NCBI GenBank assembly: GCA_046563655.1
Contig: CM102283.1
Span: forward strand, 5,890,001-5,954,000
Direction of reading: 5' to 3'
Source: Yuukianura sp. NJ FZ-2021
Lineage: Eukaryota
DNA: 64,000 bases
Shown here one piece after another: positions 12,433 through 40,292 of the stretch; within the stretch, counting starts at the first letter, position 1, and each line of letters begins with the position of its first letter. The notes below the pieces were generated by a model that did not search any database, had not been told where the DNA came from, and saw only the letters and a program-made list of their open reading frames with translations. The position numbers were made by a program, and so were the translations under genes.

Positions 12433-13940
12433 TTCAAATATTCAAATACTTGGTGGGTTCAAGCACACTGTTGGTGGGAATGTGTAACCATCCTGAGATT
12501 TTGAGAATACCGTCCACCTTGTTTGGATCTTTGGAGAAGACTGATTCGAAATCCGGTTTGGATTTTGAAATTATCTTGAAGGGATCCGCTATGGGTGACC
12601 TACAAATGATTAGAGCAGGACAAGTGACAAGTACGAATGCAAAGTGACACAGGGGTGGGCCCTTCAAGGGTCCAGGGGTTGAGTCTGTGGTTTCAGCCAC
12701 AAAAACCAAGGCCAACCCTTTGTTGTACACATGAAATTTGAAAATATCAATCCTTTCACTTTCTTTTTTCAAAAACTGGAGCAAAATGGATAAGAAGTGG
12801 TTTAAGTCCCCAGGGGAGATCATAAATCAAAACTGCCGCGTCAGTTCCAATGTCACCTTTTGTTATGGGTCAGTTCAGGTCGTCAAAATTTTAGTCAAAA
12901 GAAACCATTTTGACAACTTTACGTTATGAAAGTTTAGCTTTTGGCAGTGAAAAGATGAGCTGTGACGTGCGCTTGCGTTGGAAAAGAAATTTTTCTTAAG
13001 GAAGTGAAATTTCGAAATTCAGGAAGAATTTATCCCCCAAGTTAGAAATTTTGAGAAATTTTGACTTCTGACAAAAATTGACCCAATTTTGTCAATCAAT
13101 TCCAGAATAATATTTTAGAACCAACAAAATCCCAATTTCCCAAGAGATGCACTTCAATAATTAAAAATTTCTCTTTTAAGTTACGAAAGTAAAGTGCAGA
13201 TTTCACATTTTTATAAATTACAAAATACTTTTTAATTTACTCTTTTCAAACTTTTACCACATTTTAAGCAGTATGTGCAATTAGTGTCCATTAGGAAAGT
13301 GGAATTACCGTTTGAAACTGATTACATGAGTATGCGCAGATGAAGAAGGTGACAGAAAGGCAATCAACACTTTTGCAAACATCAAATGCAAAAGTGGGGT
13401 AAGATGATAAAGGTCACTCAACAAATCGACAATAAATCTTCTCAAAATGACTCATTTCGCTTTGTTTTTCTTTTTGCTGAATTATAAATTCAAAAAAAAA
13501 TTCCAAAAAAAAGTTGTTGTTGAACTCCCCATAGTCAAACTTTACAAAATTCAAACACCTATTTAAAGAATTTTACAACATAAACAAAGGGAAAATGCAG
13601 AAACAACCAAGACCAAAGAAGAAAAATAGAAAAAATTTCTTTTTCAGTTGCGTTTTTTTATTTCAGTGCTAGCGAAGAACTAAACCCTAATTCTAGAATT
13701 ATAAATAAAATACTTGTTTGCTGTAGTAAGATTGCTGCCTTAAATTTGGTTACATTGAAATGGTAAGACTAAAATGATGAAAAGTAATTAGTACCGTAAA
13801 ATTAGTATTTCAGATCACATTATCTGTTTACAGCTAAATAGAGTTTGTATAACTTCTATTCATGTGCTTCTATATGTTACATAAAATTTTAAAATTACTA
13901 CGGTACTATTGGTTTTGAAATTCAAATTACTAGTAGTTTC

Positions 13941-16019
13941 TTACTCGCTTTCGGAATACATGGAGTCCATGGTAATGATAGTGATTTGAAGTTGGCGCAA
14001 AACTGGTTCAAGGCACAAGTCCTCCGTGATAAACGGAATTTCCTTCTTCAGCATCTTCACAAAGTCGGACATGTCGGAGCTAAAGGTCACGGGAAGGTCA
14101 GGGCTAGCTTGTTCCCGGAGAGACGAAGCTTGACGAAGAGCCACCATGAGACCAGCAGCTACTTGTTCCGTCAATTCCACAACTCGAATGCAATCACGAG
14201 CTGCAATTGTTCCCATACTGACCTTGTCTTGATTATGACTCTCCGTTGAACGAGAAAAGACGCTTGCAGGCATCGTCAACTTCAGAGCTTCAGCAGTCCA
14301 GGCAGACATTCCAATTTGGAGTGCCTTGAGACCATGGTTGATGGCTGACCTTTGACCTGCTTCTCCCGAGAGGTTGGCTGGCAGTCCATTGTTGTAGTTG
14401 GGGTCAACCAGAAGAGCCATTTGACGATCCATGAGGTCAGCCAAGTTGGCCACGAGGTTCTTGAGACTGTCCATGACAAAGGCGACGTGACCCCCGTAGA
14501 ACATGCCTCCGTGAAAAACTCGTTCCGACTCGGTATCGATGATAGGATTGTCGTTGGCACTGTTCAGTTCGCTTTCCAGGACTTTCTGGAAGAACGGCAG
14601 AGCATCTTCCAGGACTCCGATGATATGAGGAGCACAGCGGAGCGAGTAACGGTCTTGGATGCGTAGAGCCTTGCTGTATTCCTGTGGAGCATCGGGGATT
14701 TGAAGGTCTCTGCGCATGCGTTTGGCGACTAGTTGCTGTCCAGAGTGGTCCTTGACGGAGAACAGGGTTGCGTCGTAGTGGAAATGGTTTCCCTTAAGGG
14801 CCATGACTGCAAGGGACGTCAGGCGGGTTGTCAGTTGAGCCAGCATTTTTGCACGGTGGAATGCAAGGCAAGCGACGCCAGTCATCACTGAAGTTCCGTT
14901 CATCAGAGCAAGGCCTTCTTTGGGCATCAGGACAAGTGGTTTGATGCCAAACTGAAAAAAAAATCAAAATTCAAAATTAGTTAAAACAAAAAAAAAAATT
15001 CTTTCTGTCTTGTGAAATTATGCAATGTGCTACTTTGAAAACTTTTTAATGCAAATTTCGCGTGGGACGACAACTGGTTCGTGCAACTTGTGAAAGATTT
15101 TGAAATTGTTTTATGCAATTTGTGGTGGTCAGTTTTTTTTTTGTACAGTTTATGAATTTGAAAAAAAAATGGGAAGGTCTATGAAGAAGAAATTTACATG
15201 AAATGTTAGAAAAAGTTGAAAATTACGTAAGTTAATTACTGTCTTGCATAAAAATATGTTTCCAAAAGCAGAAAATTGGAATGGCATAAAGTTTTTGCAA
15301 CGCAATGTAAACGACAGAAGAAATGACAAGGTCATTGAACTTACTTCTTCAAAGACTTCTTTAGTCGGCCGAACTTGACCTGCGCACATGACCTTCCTGT
15401 CTCCACAAAGTACAGCAGCCACGTATGACAACGGCGTCAAATCTCCAGAAGCTCCGACCGATCCCTCCTCCGGTACGAGCGGCAAAATATCATTTTGAAG
15501 CAGCAGAACCAATTGGTTGAGCAGTTCCAGTCTGACAGCCGAGAATCCCTTGACGAGCGACACAAGTCGAGCCGTTAGCAGAGCCCGCGTTGCCGGTTCG
15601 TCGAAATGTCGTCCCAGTCCGGTACAGTGGAATCGAACCAAGTGACTTGGGAGCTCGGCAACCAAGTCCTTGGAGATATTGACAGTACAACTGTTGCCAT
15701 AGCCCGTGTTGACTCCATAGATGATGTGCTCGTCGTCCAGAAGTTTCTGCAAGGTCAAAGGTCCTTTCCGAATTTTGTCCTCGAATGCTGGATCTTGGCT
15801 AAGCGTGACTGGAACTTGGCGGCGGGCGATTCGAACGACGTCGTCGATTGTGATTGGTCGAGAGCCAAAAACGATGGATTCGTCTGGAGACGGCTTCAGC
15901 AGCTTGGCCTTTGCCTTCAACGCTACGATGCTTTGGATTCCGTTGCATCCGTTGCCATTCTGCTGCTCAACGCCATTGGTTTCCTTCGGGTCGATGTGAT
16001 GAACTGCCGGTGCTGGCAT
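13941..16019 (-). CDS. MIO-dependent aromatic amino-acid ammonia-lyase (HAL/PAL/TAL family), bacterial-type; exons 16019-15345 and 14951-13941, ~561 aa
   Basis: IYGVNTGYG, GSVGASGDL (MIO Ala-Ser-Gly), KEGLALMNGT, QDRYSLRC, NSANDNP, HGGMFYG, ESHNQDKVSMG; one phase-0 GT-AG intron (14952-15344) restores a continuous frame. Confidence 0.93.
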
Positions 16020-16877
16020 TTCGGTTTGACCTTGAAAAAAAAGCATGCGTTAAATGTGGCTGACCTTGAAATCAAAAACTTGAACTGGGTAAAATGTATA
16101 GCAAAACTTGTGAAGCTTGGAAAGCGATGGTATACCTGTTGTGTTGACGTTAAAAACTGCTCAACAAATTTCCGAAAAAGAGTTTGTTCTAATTGTAAGA
16201 GACTTTTTGGTTGTTCAATTGTTTGAACAGCAATTGGAGGCAGTCGGAAGGCTGATTTTTGTACCAAGGGTAAGTATGTGGACTGGCACAGGATGGGTGA
16301 CTTGCTGGCCTTTTTATAGCCGATCTTGTCAACCTCCCCCATAATGTTGTCCACCTCAACGATCAAACACACCAGGAAACAAACCTTGATTCAACTGAAA
16401 AACTAACTAATCGTAAGGCGATTCGAAACTTATCCATAATGTTAATACAAAAAGTTCTCTGAGACATACAGTCGTTATGAACATCGTTAACTTTATCAAT
16501 ACGAAATTTCCAATTCCCAAGAAAAATCAATTAACGATACATGAGAAGCATTGCAGTATGTATTAACTTTGTAATTCATAGTTAACATTCACATCGGGGC
16601 TTTAGTTTTATCCAGTTGGAGGCACGAAACAAAAACATTTGAGCCAACAATTGAGTGAATTATAACGTCGTTAATAATGTAAAGCCTATAATTAAACCAG
16701 ACGCAAAGTTTGCATGCGTTAAAGCACCCGGATTTAGTCTAATCCTTTGTTCTATTTTAAGTCAATCAGCATTTGCCTCATTCGTGATACATTCGAAATC
16801 AATGGAACATTGCGCAATGTTTTTTAACATGTAAAAACGTAATGCTAATTTTTGAAAAAGAAAACATAATGAGTTTT

Positions 16878-17731
16878 TTACATATGAAACCGCGGAGGAG
16901 CATTGCTTCCGTTATTGGCTATGTAAACTGCTGCGGCGGCACAGGCGGCAGCAGCCGACGGCCAGCAGTAGGACGAGTGATGATGGGGGTAAGGGCCCTG
17001 TGGCCCTGCAGAGTGACCTTGACCTCCCCCGCCTCCTCCAATCATAGGGCTGAAGCAACTGTATTTGGAATTGTGGAGTTTGACATCATGAGGAGTAGTG
17101 GAGGTGGAGTGGTGGATTTGGAGGGTAGAGTAGGGGGTGGAAATGGAGTGGTTGACTATATTCGAAGACTGTTGAAGAAGACTGTGGAAATCGAACTTGT
17201 ACGTGTATCTTTTTCCGTGAACTTTTGACATGATACTTTTATCATAGTAGTAGCGTAGAGCACGACTCAGTTTGTCGTAGTTCATGTTCGGCTTGGACTT
17301 GCGTTCACCCCACCGTCTAGCTACTTCGTCGGGGTCAACCAACTTGAACTCTCCGTCTCTCCCCTCCCACCCAATGCATGAAACAGAAGTGTCCGCTAGA
17401 AGTTCCAGAAGAAACTGCCAGAGTTGAATTTGCCCCGGGGGGTGAAGGGGTGGGTGGGGGTTGGTGGGGGAGGGGGTGGTTCTGAGTTGTCCGTTCGGAG
17501 GGGGTGGATTCTGGGATGACCTCATGGAAACTCTCATTGACGCCATCAGTTGACTATATGCATCTGTTTTCATAAAAAAATGAAAAATTGAAAAATTCTA
17601 GTGAAAAAGAATTATTCAAAAAGTTGATTACCTTGAAAGTTGACTACGTTTGTACAGCAGGGGGTGAGGCATGGGCTACATGTCGGTACAGTTGACCCGT
17701 ACTGTGACGCCCAGTAACCAGTTCGCTTCAT
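16878..17731 (-). CDS. ETS-domain transcription factor, ERG/FLI1/FEV (Ets65A-like) subfamily; exons 17731-17632 and 17563-16878
   Basis: [59 protein letters not shown]; Ala-rich C-terminus as in FEV. Confidence 0.92.
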
Positions 17732-19800
17732 TTTCGGATCAAGTAATGATGTTTTGAGGAATTGAAAATTTAAAATTCCAGGTTTTGTTTACATTTTCAC
17801 ATTTTTTGTTTCTTACAATAATTTCTGAAAAGAGGCGTTTTTGTTTTTACTTTAGTAAGTTAAACTGCGGAAGAAAAGGAATGTTATTCCTTCCTGCTCT
17901 CTATTGCCTTTATGGTGAAAGTTTGCGAGGAAGTGGAAGTGACTTTTGGCTTTCCTGGAAGATTTCCGCAACGGAAGTCAAGTGGCAGGGTTAGCAAACT
18001 CTGCCGGCATTGAAGGTAATGGTGCCAAGCACTTTGGGTTTGGTCCATCTAACCCCCGGAGGGAAATGAAATGAATACCGACGTACTCTGGTAGAGCGGT
18101 GACAGTTTGAGCGTAGAAGTGCTTCCGATTGGGCCTTGCGTTGACTTTCTCCTGAGAAATGGACCAATGAGAGCCACCCACCCCCTGCTGCCAGGATTTC
18201 CTCCAACTTTCACTTAATTCACCCTCTAAGCCCCCCAAATGAAAAAGAAAGTCAAAGAACATTTCCATAATCACTTTCATTTCCATTCTCGCATTCTCAC
18301 ACTCTTATCTCCACAAAAATGCTACTTAAGAAAGCAGGATCGCTGCTTATTTTCACCGAAAAATGTTCAGGTCACAAGGTCAACTTACAAGAACTGAGCA
18401 TTATTGTAAAAATTTTACATTGAAGCAATTTTAGTTCACCAAACCAAGCCAAAGACCTTTTCAAAGTCTAAAAAATGTTTTGAACTGGTTTGTCGTTTTT
18501 CAACTAAACGCTTAAAGGAAAGAGGTCGCAGGTCAAAGGTCAAGTTTAGAGATGAGTTCGGAATGAAGCAAATCCGAATGTTCGGTTTCAAATCCCAGGA
18601 AAACCTTTATCATTGGAGCTCTTATGAAAGTATCCGTTGACACGTTGGAGAGGAAGATCCATCCAGGAAAGAGCGGGAAAGCAGCGGGAGATGCGGAAAT
18701 GATTGGAGTTTCCTTGACAGAGAGAAAATACCACCAAATCCCAAGGTGCTCAAGGGATCACACAACTTTCACCTCGTCCTGCACCTTATAAAGCCAAAAG
18801 TTACTCCCGCCAAAAGTCAAGTGCCTAAGTGTTCAACTGGAGCATCCAGCATACCACAGTAGTCTTTACTTTTGTTTCAATTTAGTCTATAACAGTTTTA
18901 GTTTAGTTTCATAAATCAGAGTGTCCACTCTGTGGAAGTTGTGGACAGGAAGAGGAATTGTCGATTGTAATCTTCGTAATTGAAAAGGAAAAGCTTGACC
19001 CCATGGTTTCTACTGAACGAGAGGCATTTGGGGTGAATTGGAAATCAGTTTCAAAAAGTTCATTAAATCCATAGATACTAAAATGTGTAGTTACTCCCTC
19101 CAGAATCCGGAGTCTGGAAGATAGCGTAGCTCCCGTACGAGCATTTATTCCAATTCGATTTATTTATAATCTGTTCCAGTGAGGTCAACGCCAATTCGAG
19201 CGAGGTCAACATTTCAATTTACTTTTCTCAACGCGTGTCTTTTGAAAAATGAAAAATAGAGACGTGTATGTCACAAATGTGTAAATTAAGAATTTTTTTT
19301 CTCAGCGTTTCCTTTTTAGTCGGAATTTGCACAGTTTAGATGCAAATGTGTGTCTGAGTTATAGACATGTGCTGGAGGCAGGTTTTGTAATTAGAATTCG
19401 CAAACGTGAGTTGCACTGCACTGTACTAAAAGCTGTTGGAAGTTTCCAAAGTTTGTAAGCTGAAAATGGTAATCAACAATGATTTATTTTTGCCAATAGT
19501 TTTAAAAACAGTAAAAACTTCTTTTTTGAAAAACGAGTTTTTTTTTTGCTGCAGAGGATTGTTTTTTCGAGATACCTCAACATCACATCACAAATTTTAC
19601 AAGTTGAAGTACAGTCGTGGTTCACATAGGTTAATGTCTGTTGTAATTAGTACATAACATAATCAGAAGTTAATTAAGTTTGTAAATTGGTATTGCCATT
19701 GAAACTCCAACCTTCCACTTGCTCTTCCTACATATCCAAGGTTCATTTTCCCAGGTTACAACCTAACCTAAGGAAAATTAAATCAAGTAGCCTTGGCCAA

Positions 19801-21989
19801 ATGCAGTTGGATCTAACTCAAATGTTATACTTAATTTTTCCAATCGTTGTCGTCGGAATCATCTTCGTCATCCTTCGGAAACCGAAAAACTATCCTCCAG
19901 GTAAAACGAAGTGAAAACTTAAGTCTCTACCAATTGCATGTTTCATATTTATCATAAGTTAATTAAGATTGTACATGGGCTCCGGGCCCGCAGGGAGAGT
20001 ATTATATAAATAAAAAAAAAAAAAAATTAAGATTGTAATTATTTGTGTTATTATTATATAATTGAAACTGTGTACCCTTGAAGGACCTTTCGCCCTTCCA
20101 TTGGTGGGTCACATTCCCTACTTTGCTGAATATGCAACGAAAGGCGGAATTCAGCGTCTTTTCATGGACTGGAAGCTCAAATTTGGACCAATCGTTGCAG
20201 TTGACTTTGGATCTTTCAAGTATTTTCTAGAATTTTTAAATTTTGAATTCTACATTAAATAGTCTTCTTCAGCACTCGTGCGTCTCCAGAAGACTAAAAA
20301 AGAACATTTTTTTTAAATCTTGAATTGTAGAGCAATCGTCCTTGGTGATGTAAGTGTTGTGAAGCTGGCATGGAGCCTTCCACAACTGACCGGGAGAATC
20401 CAGATTCCCAAGGTCATTTTGAGAAGCAGCGATGGCGTTGGAGGTCCTACCAGAGGTATATTTAAATTCACTAAGGTTAACTAACATGTAAAATCATTGA
20501 CCTTAAGCTAAAAATGGAAATTGTCGAATTTTGAAATTGGTAGGCGTTTTGTTCACGCATGGTCGAACTTGGAGTGAACAGCGCCTTTTTATGATGAAGC
20601 ACCTGAAGAAATACACTTCCGACAAACTGGATGGAATTGTGCTTCCGGAAGCAGAGGAAGTTTTGGCTCAAATAGGGCGTGTGGCGGGAACTCCCGTTTC
20701 CACTGTACATCTCTTCAATCCAGCGATTATCAACGTTGTGAGACAAATTGTGGCTGGTGACAGATTTGCCCATGATGACCCCAACTTAACCAAGGTCATG
20801 GACGCCATCACAGAGTAAGTCAAGCAAAGTTTAGTAACTAAGACTTTATTTAAGTGCAAGTCAACGGAATAAATGACAAACTCTATTTTTCAATGTTTTC
20901 AAATTTTTTCTTATATTTCTGGAAATTTTAAACTTTTTTTTAGAATGATGCACGATAAAGGAGTTAGCGGATTCGTGGCGTATCTTCCGCAGTGGCTCGT
21001 GGACACCTTCCCAAACATCACTGGATGGACCAAGTATCGTCAGAATGTCACGGTGCCAAAACGTTACTTTCTAGATTTGGTAGAAGAGCGGATTAGAGCT
21101 TATCGAGAAGGCAGCAGAGACGATTTCATTGACGCCTTCATAGCTACGTCCAAGGCCACGGAGGACACAGACAGCAGCTTCTACGGAAACGCTGGAAGTA
21201 AGTTTTTATCTCGTGATTTTGATTTTTGACATATTTGAACTTTGACCTTGACCTTAACTTTTGTTCTGCAGAGGAAAATTTGGTTCACATGGTCCTGGAC
21301 TTCTTTGACGCAGGCGTAGAAACCACAAGCACCGTTATGAGTTGGCTCCTGCTGTTTCTTGCTCTTCATCCAACAGTTCAAGAAAAGCTGCAAACTGAAA
21401 TTGACAAAGTAATTGGAAAACGACAGCCAACAGTCAGCGACAGAGCAGAGTAATTAGTTAAATTATTTAAATATTTAGTTTATAGTAATATTTATGAAAT
21501 TTATTATTGATTAATGACTGCTACAATCTTTTGAGCAGAATGCCATACGCAGACGCTGTGATTCTAGAAACCCTAAGGAAATCATCGGCTACTCCGCTGG
21601 CTCTTTTTCACAGATCACTGGAACAGGTCAACTTGTGCTCAACTACAATTCCGAAGAACACAATTGTCATTTCCAACCTGTACGGTATACACCATGATCC
21701 AACTGTCTGGGGTTCATCTGCAGACATCTTTGACCCGGATCGGTTTTTAGACTCTGAAGGATCGAATCCAGCCTCCAAGAACATGTTGGCCTTTGGAACA
21801 GGAAAAAGACTTTGTCCTGGAGACAACTTGGCCAAATCTGAACTCTTTTTGCTAACTGTAGCCACGCTTCAGAAATTCAACGTTAGGACGGATCCGAATT
21901 CTGAAATGCCTACAATGGACCAAGAAGTTGGAGGCATCATTGCCCCACCCAAGCCACACAAAATAATATTCACGGCACGTGAACCTTAA
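19801..21989 (+). CDS. Cytochrome P450, CYP2 clan, multi-exon
   Basis: TM anchor plus PPGP, WSEQR, AGVETTS (I-helix), ETLR, FDPDRF, heme motif FGTGKRLCPG. Confidence 0.92.
19974..20024 (+). mobile_element. Very short poly(A)-tailed retroposed insertion (5'-truncated LINE/SINE end) in P450 intron 1
   Basis: 51 nt ending ATAAATAAAAAAAAAAAAA, flanked by the 13-bp direct repeat AATTAAGATTGTA (19961-19973, 20025-20037). Confidence 0.65.
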
Positions 21990-22743: not shown

Positions 22744-24416
22744 ATGAACACTGAGACCCTGAACCAAGCGAATTTCCACAACCTACCACCAGAAGTAATT
22801 CAAAAGTTTCTAGTTAAACTACAATCAACAAAGTTAACTTTAACTCTAAATGATTACATTTTCAGGTACTGAACATGATCTTTGCGCAGTCAGATGCTAC
22901 TGCCCTTGCCAAAAACCGAAACGTTTGCGCCTACTGGCGCAACATCATCGAATCTCTGTTTACCACCCAATTGGAAATGACCAATCAAAACTGGGAAGCA
23001 TTCGTCAAGTTGTCCACAGCATCCCGCATTCATCTCAAACTCACTGCCCTCCAGTTCCCAATATACAGTGCTCCAGAATTCAACGACTTCATTTCCCGAG
23101 TCAACATTTTGGAAATGACTGGATACATTCCAGAGTACAATGTCATCAACATTCTCAAAGCATGTCGCAAACTGCAGTCACTCACTATTCATCGTGTGTC
23201 AATTGACGCCCATCAAGGTCTTCGAAATATCGTCACTAAAGACGTTAATAATGAAAATGACTTTGTATTTGACCTGACGCAATTGAGCGTTGGAGAGGCA
23301 GCTAATGGAGATCAACTACTTCACGTGACTTACTATGCCGCGTATCTTCTCAAACTCAACTGCTTGAAGGAGTTGAACCTCAATGTTCCATTGTTCCACG
23401 TGGAAAACGTTTTGAAATTGATTTTCGAGGGAATCTTTAAACCGCAACCAGCCGGAAATAGCGTCTTCAGCATGATTTGGGACTATCAAAGTAAATCCCT
23501 TGAACTCATAACTTTTGATTTTCAACATGACAATGTTCTGCGCCAGAAGCCTAAAATGTGTATCAAATTCCATCCGTACGAAGATGCACCAGAATCTTCT
23601 ACCACAACAGATTCGGCCAATCAAAACCCTAACATCCTGGAATCATGCTTATTCTATTTTGAACCCTGTGAATGGAACCGTCAATATACAGAAATGGTGT
23701 TGCAAATTTTTCAAACACAGTCGAAGATGAAGAATTTGGTAATTTGCTACAGGAATGAAGTAGATTTGGAGAGAATTCAAGATATCATCGAAACCAATTG
23801 TGCAACATTGGAGGAAATCACGATCCAATCACTAGAACCAATGGCGCAGGGACAACCTCTTCGTGTTTTGAGCTGCTCATGGTTTCGAACATGTTTGACC
23901 TTAAAAGAATTAACACTTTGTTCAGCAATTGAAAATCGGAAGGTCAGTTTGCTTGACCTCTTGCTTCTTCCGACTACTCTTGAGAAGTTGTCGCTTACTG
24001 GATTTATTCCAACTGGATCGTCGGAACTGTTCGGCGGAGTCGACGAATTGCCGCAGTATTCGAAATTGACTCAAGTCAAATTGCACGTCTTCCCTTGGTT
24101 CATTGTCGATGGGATTCCTCAAACAATTTTTGCAAACTTTCACTTCCGTTGGCTCCTGAACTTGTTTCCAAAAATTGAAAAGCTGACTCTCACTGGAGTT
24201 CCACTTGACAGAATCATCTCTTTTTGGGACTCACGTACCTTATTTGGTGTGCCGAATATTCTGGAATCAGTTTCTCCTGAATTTGTGACGTGGTGTCGCC
24301 AGGGTGGGGGACACAATGCCAGAATCGATTCAATTCAAATTTCCGTCCACGATGTCGTCAATCCACGCATATTTCATCGCATCACTGTGCACGAGATTTT
24401 GATCCGGAAAGATTAA
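22744..24416 (+). CDS. F-box protein with leucine-rich C-terminal region, copy 1 (exons 22744-22794, 22866-24416)
   Basis: Spliced N-terminus NLPPEVLNMIF..NRNVCAYWRNII matches the F-box pattern; LxxLxL repeats downstream. Confidence 0.8.
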
Positions 24417-24829
24417 ACGTCCATTTGCTCAACCCATCAAATTTATTTCAACTTTTCTCAACCTGTCAAAAATTTAAAAAATCTTTGGATTTTATATTGT
24501 TTTCCAAATACGATTGACAGAAAATAAAAACAAAACAAAATGACATTAAAAAATCGAACTATGCTTTAAAACGAAACCTACCTAGGTGTGTATATCATAT
24601 CAAAAACAACACAAAAATAGTAGATAACTGCAAATAATTGAATTAACTTAACACAATTCACTGAAAGTTATTGAGAAACAACAAAAGTGTCAAATTAAAT
24701 ACAAAGGCGAATTTTAACAACAAAATTGGTAAAACGAGTATACTTTGTCTGTGTAGGTTCTTGAAGAAAGCAGGTCAAAGTTTTGCAACTGGATTTTAAA
24801 TATTACAGCACAGGCCTACCAGCTTTTCA

Positions 24830-24890
24830 TTTCATTTCAAAATTTTGAAAACTTGAAGACTTGCGCAGCATGAACAGCAACTCCTTATCT
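24830..24890 (-). pseudogene. Highly decayed remnant of the NRPS 3' end
   Basis: ACTTGAAGACTTGCGCAGCATGAACAGCAACTCC resembles 46929-46962 of the intact NRPS; adjacent 3'UTR-like sequence also matches. Confidence 0.55.
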
Positions 24891-25008
24891 TAGAATTTAC
24901 TCCATACTTTTAAAATCAAATCAAGCTAACTGCATGCAATGATTTTTAACTTTTACAAAGATTTACGCCGAGAATCTTTCCGTTCATTGCATAAGATCGA
25001 ATGATGAT

Positions 25009-26671
25009 TCAAAATGTAAGAATAAGAGAAATCGTGTTTTGAAGAATGATGTCTCCGAAAAGATGTAGAACGTAGTGTTTCGTTTGGAGTGCAAAGTGTG
25101 GTCCAACTTTTATGAAAAGTGGCCGTCTTGACTTCCAGAATTTCCCATTGTACTTTCCCCACTCCTGATCCGTTTGTTTTTCACTGCCAATTTTGCAACA
25201 TGCTGAAGAGTTTGCATACAGTGACACAGATAGTTCAATACACATTTTCAATAGAAATATTGTAGCAATTGCTGTGCACAAAACGACAGAAAGCACCGGA
25301 AAAACAGATTTGAATGGATATTTAATTAGTTTTAAATATCCGTATAGGTGAATAGTGAGCACAACGGAACTTGAATAAAGGCAGAATTCTACAATTCCTG
25401 AAAATGTATCGTTGACCCAAGCACAGTACACTTGCTCAACATTGTATCTACGTTGGATTTGATTTACTGACTCCCAAGAAGTGGCTGTCTTCACCATTTT
25501 ACTGCAAATTCAAAAGCATACATTCCTAATTTTATTTAGTCATAGCGGAATTAGTTTGGAAGTTTTTAAAAGTGGGCCGTGAAAAAATATGTTAGGTAAA
25601 GAAAATATGTTTTTTAATTAAGTAAGTGATAATGTTCAAAATTTATAACTGTACCTTAGTTGAAGCATCCCAAGTCGACTGGAGTTTACGTACAGTATAG
25701 AACTTAGTGTAACTACAAAGGCAGAAAATGCGGCTCCTAATATCGAAAAGCACCCCGCAATCGCATAGGTTAGGTGGCCTCCATGGTAAACAATGTACAC
25801 AAAAATATGAGTTCCTTCAAATTTTGGTGCATTTCCTGCAATTCTTGCGTATCCATGGAAAGGAAGTTGTGACAGCTCATTGTTTGTAAAGTAAAAGAAA
25901 AGCAGCGTTGCGGGGGTTAATGTATAGCGATAGATGGTGAACAACCAATTTACCAGTTTCACCCCGCTACCACATTTGTCAACTTCAGGCATACCTTTTG
26001 CTGCTGTAAAAAAGGAAATCTTATTTCAATTTCCGCAAAAAAAGAAGAGAAATCTGTCATAAATACTAGCAAGAAATCGGAATGTTTTAATGTAATGTTT
26101 TGGTATTGGTGTTCGTTGGTAAAAACTCATTCCATCTCCAAATTTCATGACTATAGATGAATTGGGCAGTAAAAGATGTATTGATTGAATTCAACGGAAA
26201 TGCCGAATTTAAAGAAAAATCTAATTCGTAGATTGTTATTCTGTGAACAATGTTTGAAAAATGTTCATCGCAAATAAATGTTTTATTTGTTTCCGATTTA
26301 CCTGTATTTATATAAATTCTGAGGTAAGAGTCCACGAGATAGGGAAAGTCATTGATATTTCTTAGGTACCAAATTTGATTTCCAATTAACAGAGTTTGGA
26401 TTGCAATCATTCCAATGTACACCATGATTAACACTGGTTTCTCTTCATATGGGATTCCAAACACTACACAGAAGAATATCATACTCAGGTTCACACTTAT
26501 GCTCATCAAAGCTGTAGCCCAGACAATGGCATGTTTAATCTTAGGGCGTTTCGATTCTACAATGCGGTAGCAAGATTTGTAATTTTTTTGAATATAAAAG
26601 GTACAACAGTTCCAAAAGAATGCAGCATGTAGTGTATGCAGTGAAGGTTCCAAATATCTAGAATTGGTCAT
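25009..26671 (-). CDS. Divergent 7TM gustatory/odorant-receptor-like protein, copy 1 (exons 26671-26302, 26003-25655, 25501-25009; ~403 aa)
   Basis: Splice phases consistent; multiple hydrophobic helices; C-terminal FWKS.RPL.IKVG..F......L......I.QNTI.L.L resembles the OR/GR-superfamily TM7 region. Confidence 0.7.
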
Positions 26672-27473
26672 TGTTGTGATAAATCTACGATTAAGACTGA
26701 CTTTTTGCATTAACGGTATGTTGGTCTACTTAACACGACGAAATTTTTTAAGTTTCTGATCGATTGAACTTAGTTTTTGTAGAGTTGCTTTGCCTGTTTG
26801 GCTACTCGTCCTTGAATTTCTATTAGCATTTGAATGACCAATTAATAATGGAACTGTTTTAAGTTCACTTAAAACAGTTTTCTGCTTAAAAATTTAAAAT
26901 CCCAAGCAAAAAATGTTGGTATACTAGAATTGGCTTTTTAGAATAATACGACAAAGGAAAAATTCTGAGACGATAAAATGTTAATCCTTCGATTGTATTT
27001 TTTTTTCAAAATTCTGGAAATGGGTAGTGTAAACCGACGTAAATCGAATTCCATTTATGGTGTTTATTGATTTTCACAGAAAGTAAATAATTAACAAGTT
27101 TTTATCAATAGCCTATCAATCTAACACAAAATACCCCCGAAATTTTGGAAATTGTGATGAGAATGGTTATAAATTTAGGAAAATCTTAACATGCCTGGTA
27201 TTTTTCGTGCCACAATGCTGTGAGCTGAAGGTAGAAGAATATTTCCGAGCGTATGGCATGAGGGGCAGCACAGACGACTTTACTTATGCCATCGTGGCTA
27301 CGTCCACCGTAACCGACGCTTCCGGGTTAGGCGTTTTTTTTTCGATTAAATGAGGGTTTTCTAAAATGGCATTCTGAATTCATTGAAAATTTTGAAAAAT
27401 CTGTGTGAAACACTAGTGGTTATTATTTATGAATACTCAAATGTGAGGAATAAATTCAAAGTGTGAGAAATAT

Positions 27474-29322
27474 TTAAAATGTAATAATAAGAAAAATTGT
27501 ATTTTGAAGAATAATATCCCCGAAGAGGTGGAGAACGTAGTGTTTCGTTTGCAGCGCAAAGTGTGGTCCAACTTTTATAAAAAGAGGTCGTTTTGAATTC
27601 CAGAATTTTTGATTGTACTCTCCCCATTCCTGATTCGTTTGTTTTTTACTGCCAATTTTACAACAAGCCGAAGAGTTTGTGTACAATGACACAGATAGTT
27701 CAACACACGTTTTCAAAGCAAATACGATAGTAAGTGCTGCGCACAAATCGATAAGAACGACTAGGAAAACAGATCTGAATGGATATTTAATTAGTTTGAA
27801 CTGTCCGTATAAAAGCACAGTGAGGACAGTGGAACCTGTGTACATCGCGAATTCTACAATTCCTGAAAATACTTCATTGGTCCAAGCACAATAAACTTGC
27901 TCAATGTTGTATTGACGTTGAATTTGATTCACTGAACTCCAAGTAGTCGCTGCGTCTAGAACTTTACTGTAAAATCCAAAAAATAAAAATATATGTTTAA
28001 TGTTTTTTTTGTAATTTCATTTACAGTTTTTAAAAATTCATAACATTGCTATACCCTAGTTGATGCATGCCATGTCGACTGGAGTTTAGATACAGCAGAG
28101 CGCATTCTGTAAATAGATATACGGAGAACGCGGCAGCTAAAAACGAAAAGCACCCAACAACTGTATATGTTACGATGCCTGCGTGGTAAATAATGTACTG
28201 AAAAATATGAGTGCCTTCAAATTTTGGCTCAGCTCCCATAACTCTTGCATATACTTGGAACGGAAGTTGTGACAGGTCATTGTTTGTAAAGTAAAAGAAA
28301 ACCAGCGTTCCAGGGGTAACCAAGTAGCGATAGAGGGTGAACAACCAATTCATCAGTTTCAATCCGTCCTCAAGTTTGGCAACTTCTGAGTCATCCTTTG
28401 ATTCTGTAAATTAGGAAATGTTATGAACAAATTTCGTAGAGGTTGATTGAAAAAGATACCGCTCGTTTTATGGTAAAAAAAACTTTAAAGAACCACTGCA
28501 GTTCAATTTTGACACGTTCGAAAAATTAAGGTTAACGTTGTTAGGTTTTGAACCTCTTTTACGGGACAATTTGTTGCTTAAAAATTTTATCAACCATAAT
28601 TTCTTCTATTAAGAATTGAAAGCTAATTTATGCATTGACCTTTTCTGTCTGCCTGCCTGTCTGTCTGGCCGGACGTCTAGGTCAATTACCTATATATAAT
28701 CTATAGACAAACAACTTGTGACCCTAAGTGACCTCCTTCCCGGGCAAAGGTTTACTTTTTTCTTTTCTCTTTCACCTATGCCACAATGACTTACAATGGT
28801 GGCCCATCATGAGCAGCTATTCGCGATTGCGACGTCCTTTTTCGCTACTTTCATACACTCCGGGTTACAACGGCATATATTGATATTTAGAAATAATACC
28901 AAAGTTATGCATTTGTGAAAACGTTATATTATATATAATTATGGGTGTCTACCTGAACGTATATAAATTTTAAGGTATGCGGCCACGACACCAGGAATAT
29001 CATCAATGAAGCTCAAGTACCAAATTTGAGTTCCAATGAGCAGAACTTCAACTGCGATCATTGCTATGAATGTCATCATTAACTCTTGTTTCTCTTCATA
29101 TGGAATTCCAAATACAGCGCAAAGGAATATGATACTTAAGTTCACACTTATGCTCATCAAAACTGTAGCCCAAACAGTAAAACGTTTAATCTTAGGCCGC
29201 TTAGATTTTACAACGTCGTAACAAGATTTGGAATCTTTTCGGATATAAAAAGTATAACACTGCCAAAAGAATCCAGCGTTAAGTACACCGAGTGTATGGT
29301 CCAAATACCTGGAATTCGTCAT
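27474..29322 (-). CDS. 7TM chemoreceptor-like protein, copy 2 (3 exons)
   Basis: Clear paralog of copy 1 with the same exon structure. Confidence 0.7.
28585..28915. mobile_element. Possible DINE-1/Helentron-like insertion in intron 1 of receptor copy 2
   Basis: (CTGT/CTGC)n microsatellite at ~28645-28666 after a small hairpin; the intron is longer than in the paralogs; ends not defined. Confidence 0.3.
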
Positions 29323-29622
29323 TGTCCTGACAAATTGACAAATAATTCCCTACAGTTAAGAGATGTTTCTGTTTCTTTACAGTGCGGATATCTTCGTGCA
29401 CTTAACACGACTACAATTTTTTTGTGTTTCTAGCGACACGAAAGTCATAACATACTTTTTTAAGGTACTTAAATTTCCTTGCCTCTTCATTTAATTAGCT
29501 CTTCGCCGTCCGATTCCTTCTGAAATTTGTATGACAACTTAACAAAAGAAAACTTTAAAGCGAAGTTTTCTCCTTAGATATTAATGTACAGAAATCGCAA
29601 ACATAAAGAAGGTTGGGAATTT

Positions 29623-30315: not shown

Positions 30316-31550
30316 GGGAATTTACTTCTTACTTATGTTAGCAGCATGGGACGTGTATGGTAAAATACAGACATGAAATGTTAAAGTTCCTCGGAAGCTA
30401 TTTTGCTTGGGCGGAATGTTTGACTTTTCTTTTTCCAAAATAGTAGTGTGTTACAACTTAACGTGGCTGTAATTGCATTTCTAATGTTTATTGATTTTTA
30501 CGAAACACAAATAATCAAGAACATCAAGAACTTCAGCAAGAACTTAACTAGCATCGAATTAACCTGGACTTAAGCAAACCTTAGTCTTCTTCTTTGCGAT
30601 GACTTTGATGAGGATTAAGGGTGTACGCGGAAGGAATGCTTTTCCATGCAGTAAAAATTAATTTTGTTCCATTACCGCCAATAGACAGACATAATGCACA
30701 CATACAAAGTTGATTTAAAAAGTTGCTCTCAGTACTTAAGAACCCCGTTTCTAATCCGGGCTGACGTAAGTTCAATTTGCGTTTTGTGATGTCTACTGAT
30801 TTTAAGGCAAATAAATAATTAGCAACATGTCTTTAATATAATTCTATCCTAATACCGTACTGATCTACTTTGCAGAAATGCGAAAATCTGGCCAAATTTT
30901 CTAGAAAACCGTAATATAGCCTAACCAAAACCAACTCAAATGCATGCGAACTTAAAGTATTTTTCCATTCATGCAAACGATGATGTCAGAATTTTTCCAG
31001 TGCGTGTTTTTTTGTGTTATTTTTGGTTTACGTTATCTATCGTTCCACAGCCTTATACTAACATAACTGCCAAAACTCTCCACTTTAATTTTATGCAAAA
31101 CATTTATAAACGGATCATTTGGAGACACTTAATAAAAATTTCAGTTTAATTTAACAAAAAACTGTTTCTGTTTACATTAACATTGCATAAACATACAGTA
31201 AAATTTACTATGTATACATATACATACTATTTGAGACTTGAGTTATTCCCTAACCTACCCCAGCTTGGAGTATTTTCTAACGTACTCATCCTAATCTTTA
31301 CTACACCGCAAAACTAATATCTGTTAATCCCCTCCACAGTTTTAGTAATTGCCGCGTCGTCTGGTTGTTGATTAGTTTCATTAAGTGCGTCATTGCTCAC
31401 AAATGTGGTTGCAAAAGAAGCGTTAAGATTTCAGTTCACAGCCAAAATAACATCAAACTCTTACGTAAGACAATAAAATTCTTTAGGTTCATAAATTAAA
31501 TTTTTATGAAAATTTTATTTTAGTTTGATTTTTTTTAAAGTAGAATTACA

Positions 31551-32018
31551 ATGACCATGCGTCCTCAAATTGTGATTCGGAGTCCGATAAGTGCCAAGGA
31601 GTGGAACGATTATTTCTCACTTCGCTACGAAGTGTTGAGGCGCCCTCTAGGTCTTCCTGAAGGCAGTGAAAGACGTGATGACGAGCACAAGGCATTCCAC
31701 TTTGCAGCGTTTAGGGAAGAAGTCAATGAGATCATTGGAGTTGTACGGGTGAGTTTTATGGAAGAAGCGGAAAATCCGAATGAGACAATGCGCCTGCGCA
31801 TGGTGGCTGTCAAGCCTTGCGTCCAAGGAAATGGAGTTGGGAGGAAGTTGCTTCAGTTTGTGGAACAATTTGCAAGAAACCATGGAGTTACCAAAATGTA
31901 CGTCGATTCTCGTGACACTGCCGTAACATTTTATGAAGCCAATGGCTACACACTGCTCAGAAAGGTTTACGTCCTTTATGGCAAACTACAATACTACGCA
32001 ATGGAAAAGTTACTGTAA
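31551..32018 (+). CDS. GNAT-family N-acetyltransferase, bacterial YiiD/ElaA-like, intronless CDS
   Basis: YFSLRYEVLRRPLG..D....H, LRMVAV...QGNGVGRKLL (acetyl-CoA motif A), AVTFYEANGY. Confidence 0.88.
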   Translation: MTMRPQIVIRSPISAKEWNDYFSLRYEVLRRPLGLPEGSERRDDEHKAFHFAAFREEVNEIIGVVRVSFMEEAENPNETMRLRMVAVKPCVQGNGVGRKLLQFVEQFARNHGVTKMYVDSRDTAVTFYEANGYTLLRKVYVLYGKLQYYAMEKLL

Positions 32019-32463: not shown

Positions 32464-34118
32464 ATGGACACTGATACCATTCACCAAGCGAATATCCACA
32501 ATCTACCTCCAGAAGTAACTCAAAAATTTATAGTTAAACTACAATCAACACGGCTAACTTTAACTGTAAATTATTACATTTCCAGCTTCTGAACATGATC
32601 TTTGAGCACTCAGATGCTACTGCCCTTGCCAAAAACAGAAATGTTTGTGCCTACTGGCGCAATATCATCGAATCTCTGTTTACCACACAATTGGAAATGA
32701 CAAATCAAAACTGGGAAGCATTCGTGAAGTTGTCCACAGCATCCTGCATTCATCTCAAACTGACTGCCGTCCAGTTCCCAATATACACTGCTCCAGAATT
32801 CGCCGACTTCCTGTCTCGCGTCAACATTCTGGAATTGTCTGGATACATTCCAGAGTACAACGTCATCAACATTCTCAAAGCATGTCGCAAAATCCAGTCA
32901 CTCACTGTTCATCGTGTGTCAATCGACAGCAATCAAGATCTTCAAAATATCTTCATTGAAGACGATGATGACTATGTATTTGATTTGACGAAATTAAACG
33001 TCGGACTGCCAGTCAATGAGAATGATGACATGCTTGACGTGATTTACTATGCCGCGTATCTCCTCAAATTCAACTGCTTGAAGGAATTGAACCTCAGTGC
33101 GATGTTCCAATTGGAAAATGTTTTGCAACTGATTTTCGCGGGAATTTTTGAACCACTACCAGAAGAAAGCACAAATGACGTCTTCAAAATGATTTGGGAC
33201 TACCAAAATCAATCCCTCGGGCTCATTAACTTTGATTTTCAAAATGCCAATGTTCTGCGCAGGAAGCGACAAATGTTCATCAAATTCCACCCGTACGAAG
33301 ACGCACCAGAATCTCCGACGAGAGATTCGACCAATCAGAGCCCTCAAATCCTGGAATCATGTTTATTCCAACTTGAAGACTATGAAAGGAACCGTCAATG
33401 TACAGAAATGATGTTGCAAATTTTCGAAACGCAGAAGAAGATGAAGAATATGGTAATATGCTACAGGAATGACGAAGATTTGGAGCGAATTGAAAATATC
33501 ATCGAAACCAATTGTGCAACATTAGAGGAAATTGTGATCGAATCCCTTGAGCCAACGGAACAACATTTTCGTCTTTTGAGCTGCTCATGTTTTCGAACCT
33601 GTTTGACCTTAAAAGAACTAACACTTTGTTCACCAAATGAAAATCGGAAGGTCAAATTGCTTGACTTCTTGCTTCTTCCGACTTCTTTGGAAAAGTTGTC
33701 TCTCACTGGATTTATTCCAACTGGATCGTGGGAACTATTCGGCGGAGTCACCGAACTGCCGCAGTATCAGAACATGACTGAAGTGGAATTGGACGCCTTC
33801 CCTTGGTTCATTGTCGATGGAATTCCTCAAACAATTTTTGCAAACTTTCACTTCCGTTGGCTCATGAACTTGTTTCCAAAAATTGAAAAGCTGACTCTCA
33901 CTGGAATTCCAGTTGACATGCGGCCTTGGGCCACACGTCTTGGTGTGCCGAATATCCCGGAATCTGTTTCTCCTGAATTTGTGACGTGGTGTCGCCAGGG
34001 TGGAGGACACAACGTCAGAATCGATTCAATTCAAGTTTCTCGCCACGACTTCGTCCATCCACACGTACGTAACCGCGTCACGGTGCACGAAATTTTGATT
34101 CGGAAAAATCAAAGTTAA
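32464..34118 (+). CDS. F-box/LRR-like protein, copy 2 (exons 32464-32514, 32586-34118)
   Basis: Paralog of 22744-24416 with the same intron; NLPPELLNMIF..VCAYWR. Confidence 0.8.
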
Positions 34119-36073: not shown

Positions 36074-39000
36074 TTAAACTTTATAAGTTCCTGGGGGTGG
36101 GCGAATCCTCTTGGGATATCTTGGTTCCACTGGATCTGGTGGCGTAGCCTCGTCCTCAGCATCCAGTATTTCCACCGGGTCATCTCTCGTCTGTGCGTCT
36201 GCTACTGGGTCATCGGCGGTTTGAAGTGGTGTTGTGGGTGCATCTAGAATCTGGTCAAGGTGTCGCTTCATCTGTTCTCCATCAACATCCAGGATGAAGG
36301 TTACTGGTCCAACTTGTTTTGAAACAGTTCCAGAAGACCACTTCGGAGCATTTTTCGAAAATGTTTTGACCCACACCTTTTGTCCAACTTTGATTTCTCG
36401 AGTTCTCGTTCTCTTGTCATAATTTTCCTTTTGCTGGAATTGTGACTTTCCAACATGAGTTCGGACATCAGGGCGTACAAGGTCAAGAAGTGTCCTGAAT
36501 TTCCTTCCTTGTAAAAGTTCGGCTGGAGACAGTCCAGTAGTGGCATGAGGAGTGACTCGGTATGTAAAGAGAAAGCGTTGGAGAGCGAGAGTTTTGTCTC
36601 CTCCGGAAGCTTTCATTGCCTTTTTGAAAGTTTGAATAAACCTTTCAGCTTCTCCATTTGACCTCGGATGGTAAACAGAGCTTGTTGAGTGACGGATTCC
36701 GTTTGAATCGCAAAACGACTTGAATTCTTGTGATGTAAACTGTGAGCCATTGTCGCTAACAATTTGTTCCACAAGACCAAAACGGCAAATTGTTTCTCGA
36801 ATTTTTGAAATTACAATTGAACTAGTCGAATTGTTGTTTAAATCAAAAACTTCTGGCCATTTAGAATGAGCATCCGTTATGATTAGCCACATTCTATTTA
36901 AAAACGGACCAGCCAGGTCAATGTGAATCCGTTGCCATGGACGTTCCGGAAACTCCCATGGGTGCAGCGGGGCGCTTGGCGGGCTGTTTCGATTTTGAAC
37001 ACATTGTTCACAGCTTCTTGAAATTCCTTCAATTTCAGCATCTATTCCTGGCCACCACACGTATTGACGTGCAAGGGATTTCATTCTCACCATTCCAGTG
37101 TGAGTATAATGTAATTCATCCAAAATTTTCTTTTGAAATGAGGATGGGATGACAACTCGTATTCCCCACATTATTAGTCCATGAACTAATGTCAGTTCTT
37201 CCCTTCTGAGAAAGTAGGGGTAGAGTGGATCCGTCTTTCCCATAGTCGTTGGCCAACCGCCAATGATGTGACGGTAGACTGCTGAGAGAGTAGCGTCTCG
37301 ACTACTGACCCTCTCAATTGCTTTGGCAGTGACTGGCAGTACCTCCAGTGTTGAGCAGGCAACAAGGTTAACTTCAAAATCTATTTCTGGTGTCACTCCC
37401 TTGTCATCATTTGGCATAGGATGGCGGGAGAGAGCATCTGCATTTCCATGATCTGATGTTCTTCTGTACTGAATAGTGTAGTTGAATTGACTGAGATATA
37501 AACTCCATTTTTGAAGTCGGGTTGCAGCATAGGATGGCACTTGCGCAGTACGGCCTAATATTGACAGCAGCGGCTGATGATCAGTGATGACTGTGAACTC
37601 CCGTCCACAAAGATACTGAAAAAATTTCTTTACTCCAAAAATAATTCCAAGAGCTTCTTTTTCAATTTGTGAATACTTTCGTTCTGCTGGTGAAAGAACC
37701 TTGGAGGCGAAAGCGATTGGTCTTTCAGTGTTGTCTGGAAACCGATGAAATAAAACTACTCCAAGTCCATTTTGAGATGCGTCGCAGCTAATCCCAATTG
37801 GAGAAAGTGGAGAGTAGTGACACAGAACAGGGGCTGAAGAAAGTGCTTTCTTGATTTCCTCAAAGGAAAGTTGGCATTTGTTTGTCCATTTAAATTCTGC
37901 ATCTTTTCTTGTAAGTGCATAGAGATCAACACACTTATCAGCCAACTTGGGGATGAACTTCCCATAAAAATTCACAAGTCCAAGAAATGACTTAACTTCC
38001 GTAACAGTTTGAGGTTGCTGAATTGCTTTAACTGCTTTTACTTTCAGCGGCGATGTCATGATTCCATTCTTTGTAATAATGAACCCTAAATAGTCCAGTG
38101 ACTTTTGTAGAAATAAGCATTTCGTTTTTGAAAGTCGATAATTGAATTCACGCATGCGCTGAAATATTTTCTGTAAAGTAGAAAGATGATCCTGGTCAGT
38201 GACTCCAGTGCAGATGGAATCATCCATGAACGATCCGGACATCGGAATATTCTTCAGGAGTTTATCCATAAATTCCTGGAAAATAGCAGGAGACGATGCG
38301 ATTCCTTGCGGGAGAACTCTGTACCTATAGAGTCCACGATGAGTATTTATTACCATAAATGACTTACTCATGTCATCTAGCTCAATTTGGTGAAAGGCGT
38401 CTGGCCCATCCAGCCGAGAAAAAGTATTTCCTCCTGAAATCATTGACATCAGTTCGTCCACTCTCTGTAGTGGGTACTGAGTAATGTTGAGCTGAGAGTT
38501 GACAGTATGTTTGAAATCTCCTGTTATTCTTACTCTTCCATTTGCTTTTGGAACAACCACGAGGGGTGAAGCCCATTCAGAATGCTCGATTCGTTGAATG
38601 ACTCCGTTTTGTTCCATAACATCAAGTTCAGCGTCGACCTTGGCACGGAGAGCAAATGGTATTGGACGAGCCTTCAAAAATTTTGGCACAGCGTCGTCTT
38701 TTAAAATAACTTTGGCTTTGAATCCTTTGATCCAACCTTGAGGCGGAGAGAACACATCTTTGTACTGCTCTAGGAGCGTTTCTAAATTTAGCTTCTGTGG
38801 AGCAGCAAGCTGATAGCATTTAGAGTCCAGTGACAGCTTCAGTCCGAACAGATTAACTAAATCTCGGCCAAATAACGATTTGTTTCCTTTTGTAACTGAA
38901 AAGGAATATTGCTTGGATTGACCTTTGTACGTAAGGGTCACATCCACCTTTCCCAAGGGGCGAAAGGGTTGATCGGTGAAAGTTCTAAAAACATCAGAAC

Positions 39001-40060: not shown

Positions 40061-40292
40061 CTTGTTTCCGGGTTGACCAATAGGCTGAAGTTGCGGAAAT
40101 GGACTGCTACCAGTTGCCAGGATGAAATCGTTGATGAAATCGTTTAGAATTGGGTCACTGATGAAATCGGTGAGCAATTTTGTCCGTCGTGTGAGCTCCT
40201 CAAAGTATTCGGCTTCGTCAAATTCTGAATCAGAGTCAAACTGATCCAGCGTTGCAATTGGGAATCGTAGCTTTCACTCTCGTCGCCAGAAA

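Follow-up and report, generated by a model that had tools for sequence, protein, structure and literature searches.

In plants, fungi and bacteria, entry into phenylpropanoid metabolism runs through tyrosine and phenylalanine ammonia-lyases (TAL and PAL), and to our knowledge no animal-encoded TAL or PAL has been characterized. In this study, we analyzed a window of 64,000 nucleotides from Yuukianura sp. NJ FZ-2021 (likely a springtail; NCBI GenBank assembly GCA_046563655.1, contig CM102283.1, here C1, positions 5,890,001 to 5,954,000), which holds on its reverse strand, at positions 13941 to 16019, a gene for an aromatic amino acid lyase. The gene is a spliced, horizontally acquired lyase of the type dependent on 4-methylideneimidazol-5-one (MIO), and belongs to a small springtail family that is mislabeled as histidase in databases. 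Its product, referred to as the lyase below, is predicted to act mainly on tyrosine.

The closest described enzymes are the proteobacterial lyases of aryl-polyene clusters with an F/H or Y/H selectivity pair (branches 1–4 of Brack et al. 2022, PMC9321829). The lyase is 57–63% identical to them and has the same kind of pair, the ASG tripeptide and the HNQDKVSMG motif. In contrast to that group, it is nuclear, has two introns and an N-terminal extension, has no aryl-polyene genes alongside, and carries Met375, Asn109 and Ser463 at positions where His, Asp and Cys are almost invariable among the proteobacterial enzymes. BagA, the TAL of bagremycin biosynthesis in Streptomyces, shares the second-position His and HNQDKVS, and its NCBIfam model is the top one for exon 2 of the lyase; however, its pair is Y-H rather than F-H, and the cut-off of the BagA family is missed by a wide margin (382 of 1000 bits for P0244, the nearest orthologue). 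Metazoan histidine ammonia-lyase (HAL) has the fold family and catalytic core in common with the lyase, but differs in its S-H and T-E residues, in an identity of 33–34%, and in being encoded by a separate many-intron gene on contig C4. The named animal relatives are three proteins of Folsomia candida (XP_021952943.1, XP_021959042.1 and XP_021965031.1), which fall in one clade with the lyase (100/100) at 60–63% identity, with an F-H pair and a compatible intron position, whereas they lack the N-terminal extension, have a different lid loop and are labeled 'histidine ammonia-lyase'; no functional account of them was found. A further parallel is the PAL of Dictyostelium discoideum (Weise et al. 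2017, PMC5651878), likewise a bacterial MIO lyase that moved into a eukaryote outside the plants and fungi and was mislabeled as HAL; unlike the lyase, it is StlA-related, has an F-L pair, tested as a strict PAL, stems from a separate transfer and belongs to an amoeba, not an animal.

Gene structure and family membership

Five public runs contain this stretch, none of them recorded as RNA, which counts neither for nor against splicing. The contigs of four (X1, X2, X4 and X5), of which X4 has no library type on record, were compared with the window. The features of the gene are:

16019-15345 + 14951-13941 (-): coding sequence (CDS) of the lyase, 561 amino acids, frame unbroken
15345..16019 (-): coding exon 1, residues 1-225, 675 nt, with the Asn/Gly-rich extension, Tyr101, the selectivity pair and the MIO tripeptide
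13941..14951 (-): coding exon 2, residues 226-561 plus stop, 1011 nt including the stop, with Asn243, the QDRYS loop, NDNP, Lys434/Ile438, Glu462 and Asn465-Gln466
14952..15344 (-): coding intron, 393 bp, phase 0, GT..AG, 29% GC
16031..16135 (-): intron in the 5' untranslated region (UTR), 105 bp, GT..AG, bridged in run X4, where the shorter side has 89 letters
16136..16222 (-): 5' UTR exon, with X4 cover up to a bin ending at 16327, upstream limit not fixed
13688..13940 (-): likely 3' UTR, with X4 cover as far as a loose contig end at 13688, exact end not fixed
15717..15719 (-): Tyr101, inner-lid-loop catalytic base, aligned with AvPAL Tyr78
15627..15632 (-): Phe130-His131, selectivity pair by alignment (89/90 in R. 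sphaeroides TAL numbering; meaning from PMC9321829)
15444..15452 (-): Ala190-Ser191-Gly192, MIO-forming tripeptide by alignment
14211..14243 (-): ESHNQDKVSMG, by alignment with the N/Q of TAL/PAL type and not the T/E or Q/E of HAL

The frame continues across the coding intron, whose GC content of 29% compares with 52% in the CDS. Contigs of X4 give no cover within this intron, whereas those of X1, X2 and X5 do cover the introns. Loose X4 contig ends stand at 14951 and 15345, and their 13 and 17 overhanging letters, checked by eye, are those of the other exon; a formal bridge across a junction needs 31 letters, and these overhangs fall under that bar. The 5' UTR intron is formally bridged by X4 contigs, and loose X4 ends fit the paralogue on contig C5 (described below) as well. 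Such intron-skipping contigs suggest that X4 is an RNA run. A retrocopy was considered as the origin of the exon-joined contigs and is unlikely because the family search gave just three loci in the genome, each of them intron-bearing. The exon upstream of the 5' UTR intron is non-coding; an in-frame stop lies 13 codons 5' of the ATG, and no earlier ATG occurs in the spliced leader examined. An earlier first-pass annotation, made from the letters of the window, had recognized the phase-0 GT-AG coding intron correctly and had overlooked the second intron in the 5' UTR.

By profile and by residues, the lyase is assigned to the MIO-dependent aromatic amino acid lyases. Its exons score 180.8 and 313.2 bits against the PF00221 profile (curated cut-off 27.3), which is far beyond chance, and both align lengthwise with solved HAL, PAL, TAL and aminomutase chains. 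The catalytic set is complete (Y101, ASG, N243, Q324, Y327, R330, NDNP at 358-361, K434, I438, E462, N465 and Q466). The LVRFH and ESHNQDKVSMG motifs that the first-pass annotation had picked out are residues 127-131 and 462-472, with ASG at 190-192. The N-terminal extension it had also noted is present, with about 45–50 residues ahead of the domain, although its description as low-complexity fits only mildly (Asn/Gly-rich); a comparable extension is found in P0244 and the C5 paralogue and in none of the three Folsomia proteins. When exon 2 was compared with eight NCBIfam models, BagA came top at 258 bits, with exon 1 giving 104 bits against it. Neither these values nor the 382 bits of P0244 reach the 1000-bit cut-off of the BagA/FevW equivalog NF041222, nor is the 539-bit cut-off of hutH (TIGR01225) reached by the exons (158 and 219 bits) or by P0244 (395 bits), as compared with 722 bits for the Folsomia HAL.

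Relatives, phylogeny and origin

The genome searched comprises 98.7 Mb in 22 contigs. The first-pass annotation had treated the gene as isolated; in fact it has a small family, with copies on contig C5 of its own genome, in Folsomia candida and probably in Holacanthella. The related loci in the genome are:

G000:C5:8942082-8944209, L006:3083-5210 (-): paralogue, 548 amino acids, Y-H pair, 62% identical over 510 codons
G000:C4 about 4.028-4.032 Mb, L007 (-): canonical metazoan HAL with many introns, S-H, TEDHV
C1:3.838 Mb: urocanase

The first intron of the C5 paralogue lies at the lyase's own intron codon, and a second, phase-1 intron is present in addition. In Folsomia, the read-through fragment P0239 leaves the spliced protein P0238 at the lyase's intron place, within one codon, and the nearest intron of the C4 HAL is four codons away. 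One exon of that HAL is 94% identical to the HAL of Folsomia candida, 91% to that of Orchesella and 86% to that of Allacma, which points to a springtail as the likely host. The spliced lyase itself is 79% identical to P0244, 60–63% to the three Folsomia proteins as well as to the top bacterial matches, and 33–34% to the springtail HALs. Among the best 120 matches listed for exon 2, the named animal proteins are the three from F. candida only and the other named ones are bacterial; Orchesella and Allacma do not appear among the 120 + 120 best matches listed, which are crowded by bacteria and do not show absence from these genera. Between the lyase and the C5 paralogue, the proportions of nonsynonymous and synonymous differences are 0.28 (pN) and 0.79 (pS) over 510 codons, and no pN/pS ratio is claimed because pS is near saturation. 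In the comparison with the public runs, six of the eight coding differences among 40 rows listed out of 322 were silent, a small and filtered sample.

Two trees place this family among bacteria. A FastTree of 440 rows (full-length matches, ten animal HALs and four springtail-type fragments, with other fragments and fusions left out) recovered the ten springtail-type rows as a single clade (1.0), whose sister group comprises 149 rows, most of them Y-H; these ten are the lyase, the C5 paralogue, the three F. candida proteins and five placed by the tree alone. An IQ-TREE (LG+G4) of 69 hand-picked rows recovered the springtail-type clade at 100/100 within a 31-row clade at 100/99 that includes 21 bacterial or unlabeled rows and consists mainly of Oxalobacteraceae, Chitinibacteraceae, Lysobacteraceae and unlabeled rows beside the springtail ones. 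The forks adjoining the springtail clade are open in this tree, so that no nearest donor genus is singled out. In an approximately unbiased (AU) test of 27 rows, forcing six springtail-type sequences together with four animal HALs cost 269 log-units (p-AU 3.45e-5). The phylogeny proposed by the first-pass annotation therefore gives no grouping with metazoan histidases, since the AU test rejects a joint clade, and nests the lyase among proteobacterial ones. That annotation's idea of a domesticated gene acquired by horizontal transfer is upheld.

The lyase descends from the aryl-polyene lyase group but has left the aryl-polyene system. Bacterial loci were surveyed as the best 80 of 597 confirmed in GTDB, using 12 aryl-polyene marker types derived from two of the 80 and identified as ketosynthase (KS), ApeI/ApeP dehydratase, LolA-like, MMPL-like, acyltransferase and thioesterase genes. 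At least four of the 12 marker types occur at 74 of the 80 loci, one to three at four loci and none at two. The last two, in Massilia aurea (L008) and Ca. Methylobacter favarea (L084), have the lyase and no aryl-polyene marker within about 10 kb, which indicates that the lyase leaves its cluster in bacteria also. The pair could be read at 78 bacterial loci, as FH in 49 and YH in 29, in the same cluster type. In the window, the neighbors scanned, which include ETS and P450 genes, do not form an aryl-polyene cluster. The earlier suggestion that FH with HNQDKVSMG marks a proteobacterial group of aryl-polyene clusters thus stands on the 74 loci, without the PAL label it attached to that group.

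The simplest history is one old transfer, after which the intron was gained and the gene duplicated. A single old transfer is likely because the C5 paralogue has the same intron position and the Folsomia copy fits; the trees allow a single origin and do not prove it. On this model, the lyase alone would have been transferred once out of a proteobacterial aryl-polyene cluster, the intron would have been gained before the copies diverged, duplication would have followed, and Tyr would have changed to Phe at position 130 both in this copy and in Folsomia.

Predicted substrate

Judged from its residues, the lyase is predicted, with a probability of about 0.6, to deaminate tyrosine, giving p-coumaric acid, and likely to accept phenylalanine as a minor substrate. 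According to Brack et al. (PMC9321829), TALs have H/L, Y/H, F/H or S/H at positions 89/90, PALs have F/L and HALs S/H, while N/Q at 435/436 marks TAL/PAL and Q/E or T/E marks HAL. F130-H131 at 89/90 and N465-Q466 at 435/436 match the TAL signature of that paper. The statement of the first-pass annotation that TALs have HL is too narrow, and the PAL-like activity that it proposed is weakly founded, as F/H plus N/Q is published as a TAL signature. Branch 1 of the proteobacterial F/H-Y/H lyases holds the TAL of Idiomarina loihiensis together with candidates from Aeromonas molluscorum and Herbaspirillum robiniae, and the A. molluscorum enzyme took tyrosine and, slightly, phenylalanine (PMC9321829). 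Weise et al. (PMC5651878) similarly treat YH and FH as TAL-like, and in their alignment the strict TAL BagA has Y-H and HNQDKVS as opposed to the F-L of PALs.

The bacterial relatives point in the same direction. All 299 rows of the enclosing clade, bacterial or unlabeled, carry His131, whereas at position 130 there are 154 rows with Y and 145 with F. As His131 is invariant, position 130 is split and each of the two residues is found with one and the same type of cluster, F or Y at 130 looks tolerated; this pattern favors tyrosine binding through His131 with either residue beside it. YH is also carried by both P0244 and the C5 paralogue.

In the mechanism that family chemistry would predict, Ala190-Ser191-Gly192 would cyclize to form MIO within a homotetramer, the amine of the substrate would add to this group, and Tyr101 would remove the beta-proton. 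Arg330 and Asn465/Gln466 would hold the carboxylate side, leaving His131 free for binding of the para-hydroxyl, and a trans-arylacrylate and ammonia would be released. The product would likely enter host phenolic chemistry as hydroxybenzoate-type deterrents, antioxidants or conjugates, which is the least certain step. Springtail aromatic deterrents include syringic acid, dimethoxybenzoic acids, hetero-substituted benzenes and benzyl benzoate (PMC11376146, PMC6383892); the excerpted passages give no enzymes for them, and those on the cuticle of Isotomidae name no cinnamates (PMC11321324). The genome has 11 weak matches to TIGR02372, the model for 4-coumarate-CoA ligase, none of them above cut-off.

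Several observations count against the tyrosine prediction or the biology built on it. Four of the ten putative TALs chosen by the rule of PMC9321829 failed (two were Phe-only and two inactive), the Aeromonas and Idiomarina enzymes are compared with the lyase here by branch rather than by residue pair, and FH is called 'possibly intermediary' in PMC5651878. The lyase has Met375 where 298 of 299 rows have His and Asn109 where 287 of 299 have Asp; since these pocket-near residues depart from the bacterial consensus, its specificity may have drifted. F at position 130 stands on two separate springtail branches that arise from a mostly Y background. Full-length P0244 scores slightly better against HAL models (400 and 395 bits) than against BagA (382 bits), all far under cut-off. 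The window holds no pathway cluster round the gene, and the genome profile search returned no match to phenolic-acid decarboxylase (PF05870) or chalcone-synthase-like proteins (PF00195), which does not prove their absence. The published deterrents come from Poduromorpha and not from the host's apparent lineage (PMC11376146, PMC6383892). Finally, splice support comes from one run, X4, of unrecorded library type, whose sample is that of X1 and X2 and maybe the source of the assembly.

Alternative activities

The view of the first-pass annotation, that the change from Tyr to Phe at 130 made this copy a Phe-preferring, PAL-like enzyme producing cinnamate while the YH copy on C5 is the TAL, appears unlikely to us even though it accounts for part of the evidence. 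In the donor-side sister group, 141 of the 149 rows carry YH, yet FH is found here and in all three Folsomia proteins, on separate branches; loss of the polar residue at 89 turns the R. sphaeroides TAL into a PAL (PMC9002059); and the Aeromonas member of the clade has slight activity on phenylalanine (PMC9321829). However, characterized PALs have F/L, as in AvPAL, StlA and PcPAL, versus F-H in the lyase, and a second-position His was used to discard candidates as TAL-like (PMC5651878). By our own reading of the alignment in that paper, the lyase has at least three pocket differences from AvPAL (Tyr107, Asn109 and His131). The PAL criterion given there is at least 18 of 19 zymophore residues, and our comparison suggests three or more differences, a figure drawn from the variation counts of Fig. 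S3 and not from its highlighted columns. The alternation of F and Y among bacteria with the same cluster (49 and 29 of 78 loci) also speaks against a switch. Judged on the F/L pair, the lyase is not a canonical PAL.

A broad aromatic lyase, acting on Tyr, Phe, His and perhaps DOPA or dietary aryl-alanines in catabolism or detoxification, is distinctly improbable. A PAL/TAL of Pseudomonas fluorescens is cited in PMC7595223. His131 is the HAL-type residue at that position too, and the gene has no biosynthetic cluster nearby. The Pseudomonas enzyme presumably accepts His as well, and we take it to be of this clade. On the other hand, the His-specific Glu is replaced by Gln466, Lys434/Ile438 are of PAL/TAL type, and a dedicated HAL and a urocanase are present in the genome.

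An aminomutase role, with beta-tyrosine or beta-phenylalanine as product and, for instance, NRPS-like (nonribosomal peptide synthetase-like) enzymes of the host as users, is very improbable. Genes of that kind occur in the window and the genome, tyrosine aminomutases (TAMs) and TALs are alike at 89/90 and 435/436 (PMC9321829), and Tyr107, at the position of AvPAL Phe84, is common to SgTAM. Tyr107 is nevertheless the norm of the clade (286 of 299 rows), its tested members are reported as lyases (PMC9321829), and mutase models score under the BagA and HAL models.

A second histidase acting on His only is what the automatic name 'histidine ammonia-lyase' of the Folsomia entries and the marginally top HAL scores of full-length P0244 would suggest, and is hardly credible. 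Animal HALs have S-H, M/C at 434/438 and T-E, in contrast to F-H, K434/I438 and N465-Q466 in the lyase. With no S/H pair, no Q/E or T/E, a hutH score below cut-off (395 versus 539 bits for P0244, with the Folsomia HAL at 722), 33–34% identity to springtail HALs versus 57–63% to bacteria, and a grouping with animal HALs rejected by the AU test, the lyase is not a canonical HAL.

Bacterial contamination or mis-assembly, to which the 60–63% identity to bacterial proteins might point, is untenable because the gene has two spliceosomal introns, animal-type neighbors (ETS and P450) on a multi-megabase contig, a same-intron paralogue, Folsomia orthologues, X5 cover from a second study over exon-intron and exon-flank stretches, and a third-position GC content (GC3) of 0.56 that equals that of the adjoining ETS gene (0.56; three bacterial relatives checked have 0.84, 0.83 and, in Vibrio, 0.43). 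The argument of the first-pass annotation from the intron and the metazoan neighbors is in agreement with these data.

Earlier reports and significance

A member of the family is probably already in print. Additional file 3 of PMC5644144 lists as a horizontal transfer candidate of Holacanthella duospinosa the model maker-scaffold460size128090-augustus-gene-0.0 (533 amino acids, span 3168 bp), named after its best match, a Stenotrophomonas 'histidine ammonia-lyase'; it is also flagged 'Bacteria' on the contamination sheet and goes unmentioned in the main text. Its listing, as distinct from its sequence, suggests that it probably belongs with the lyase, and if so the family extends to Poduromorpha. 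Three supplementary files of the F. candida genome paper and two of O. cincta contained no lyase terms, although their lists of gene ids alone could still contain the lyase. Full-text literature searches, which most subscription papers lie beyond, returned no report of a springtail or animal TAL or PAL, and the excerpted passages of PMC9002059 and PMC7595223 mention none from arthropods. A rotifer match in the literature (PMC12220480) was set aside as a metazoan-type HAL and not a TAL/PAL.

TAL-type activity in an animal would be unusual, providing plant-type phenolic acids from tyrosine and perhaps phenylalanine. The novelty is tempered by the enzyme class being well known, by the Holacanthella candidate, and by gene transfer being common in springtails, with 809 candidates in F. 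candida (PMC5490193). The family makes springtails' own synthesis of their aromatics testable in the laboratory species Folsomia candida, and its natural YH/FH pairs (orthologues 79% identical, and two paralogues in one genome) bear on the meaning of the FH motif. Tentatively, and with considerable doubt, we propose that acquisition of a bacterial first step of phenylpropanoid chemistry before the split of Poduromorpha and Entomobryomorpha, duplication and repeated Tyr/Phe flips may have yielded, in this genome, coumarate-forming (YH) and cinnamate-forming or dual (FH) enzymes that supply springtails with their own aromatic defenses. Such a history would parallel, in animals, the gene transfer from which plant phenylpropanoid metabolism has been proposed to stem.

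Genomic neighbors and other candidate genes

The other features of the window are:

16878-17597 (-): ETS-domain transcription factor exon, nearest upstream neighbor (Pfam scan)
about 19800-21989 (+): cytochrome P450 with several exons, lying about 4 kb away from where the lyase starts, no link between the two shown
22854-29349, 32538-34118, 41973-46312: locally duplicated block, three copies each of two gene types
31539-32018 (+): GNAT acetyltransferase, single frame
36074-40273 (-): long terminal repeat (LTR) retroelement, unbroken 1399-residue frame with reverse transcriptase, RNase H and integrase (Pfam scan)
46888-48801 (-): NRPS-like adenylation and carrier-protein didomain, single frame, 31 kb from the lyase, nothing tying the two
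51816-52381 (-): Hairy/HES-like basic helix-loop-helix exons (by eye)
53947-55655 (-): GH20 hexosaminidase exons

A local pathway cluster round the lyase was considered and is rejected for now: besides an ETS, a P450 and a GNAT gene, the neighborhood holds a retroelement and repeated genes that have no Pfam match. The duplicated block consists of a single-frame gene of 510–530 amino acids and a multi-exon membrane-protein gene, each present three times; by eye, these appear F-box-like and gustatory-receptor-like, and the copies scanned gave no Pfam match. In the didomain, alignment places Asn where amino-acid-activating adenylation domains keep Asp. Because this Asp is the amine-binding residue, the replacement would suit a substrate other than an amino acid; as a partner of the lyase, the didomain is a lead at most.

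Elsewhere on C1, 0.6 Mb from the lyase, lies the following gene:

G000:C1:5.285 Mb, L098:1150-2184 (+): S-adenosylmethionine (SAM)-dependent O-methyltransferase, single open reading frame, 344 amino acids

The best solved relatives of this O-methyltransferase are bacterial natural-product methyltransferases, and it is possibly a second transferred gene, a lead for phenolic tailoring only. On contigs C7 (about 5.55-5.57 Mb) and C3 (about 6.09 Mb), open frames of 12,659 and 5,877 amino acids with adenylation-type matches (L088, L092, L094) are probably giant NRPS or polyketide synthase (PKS) genes.

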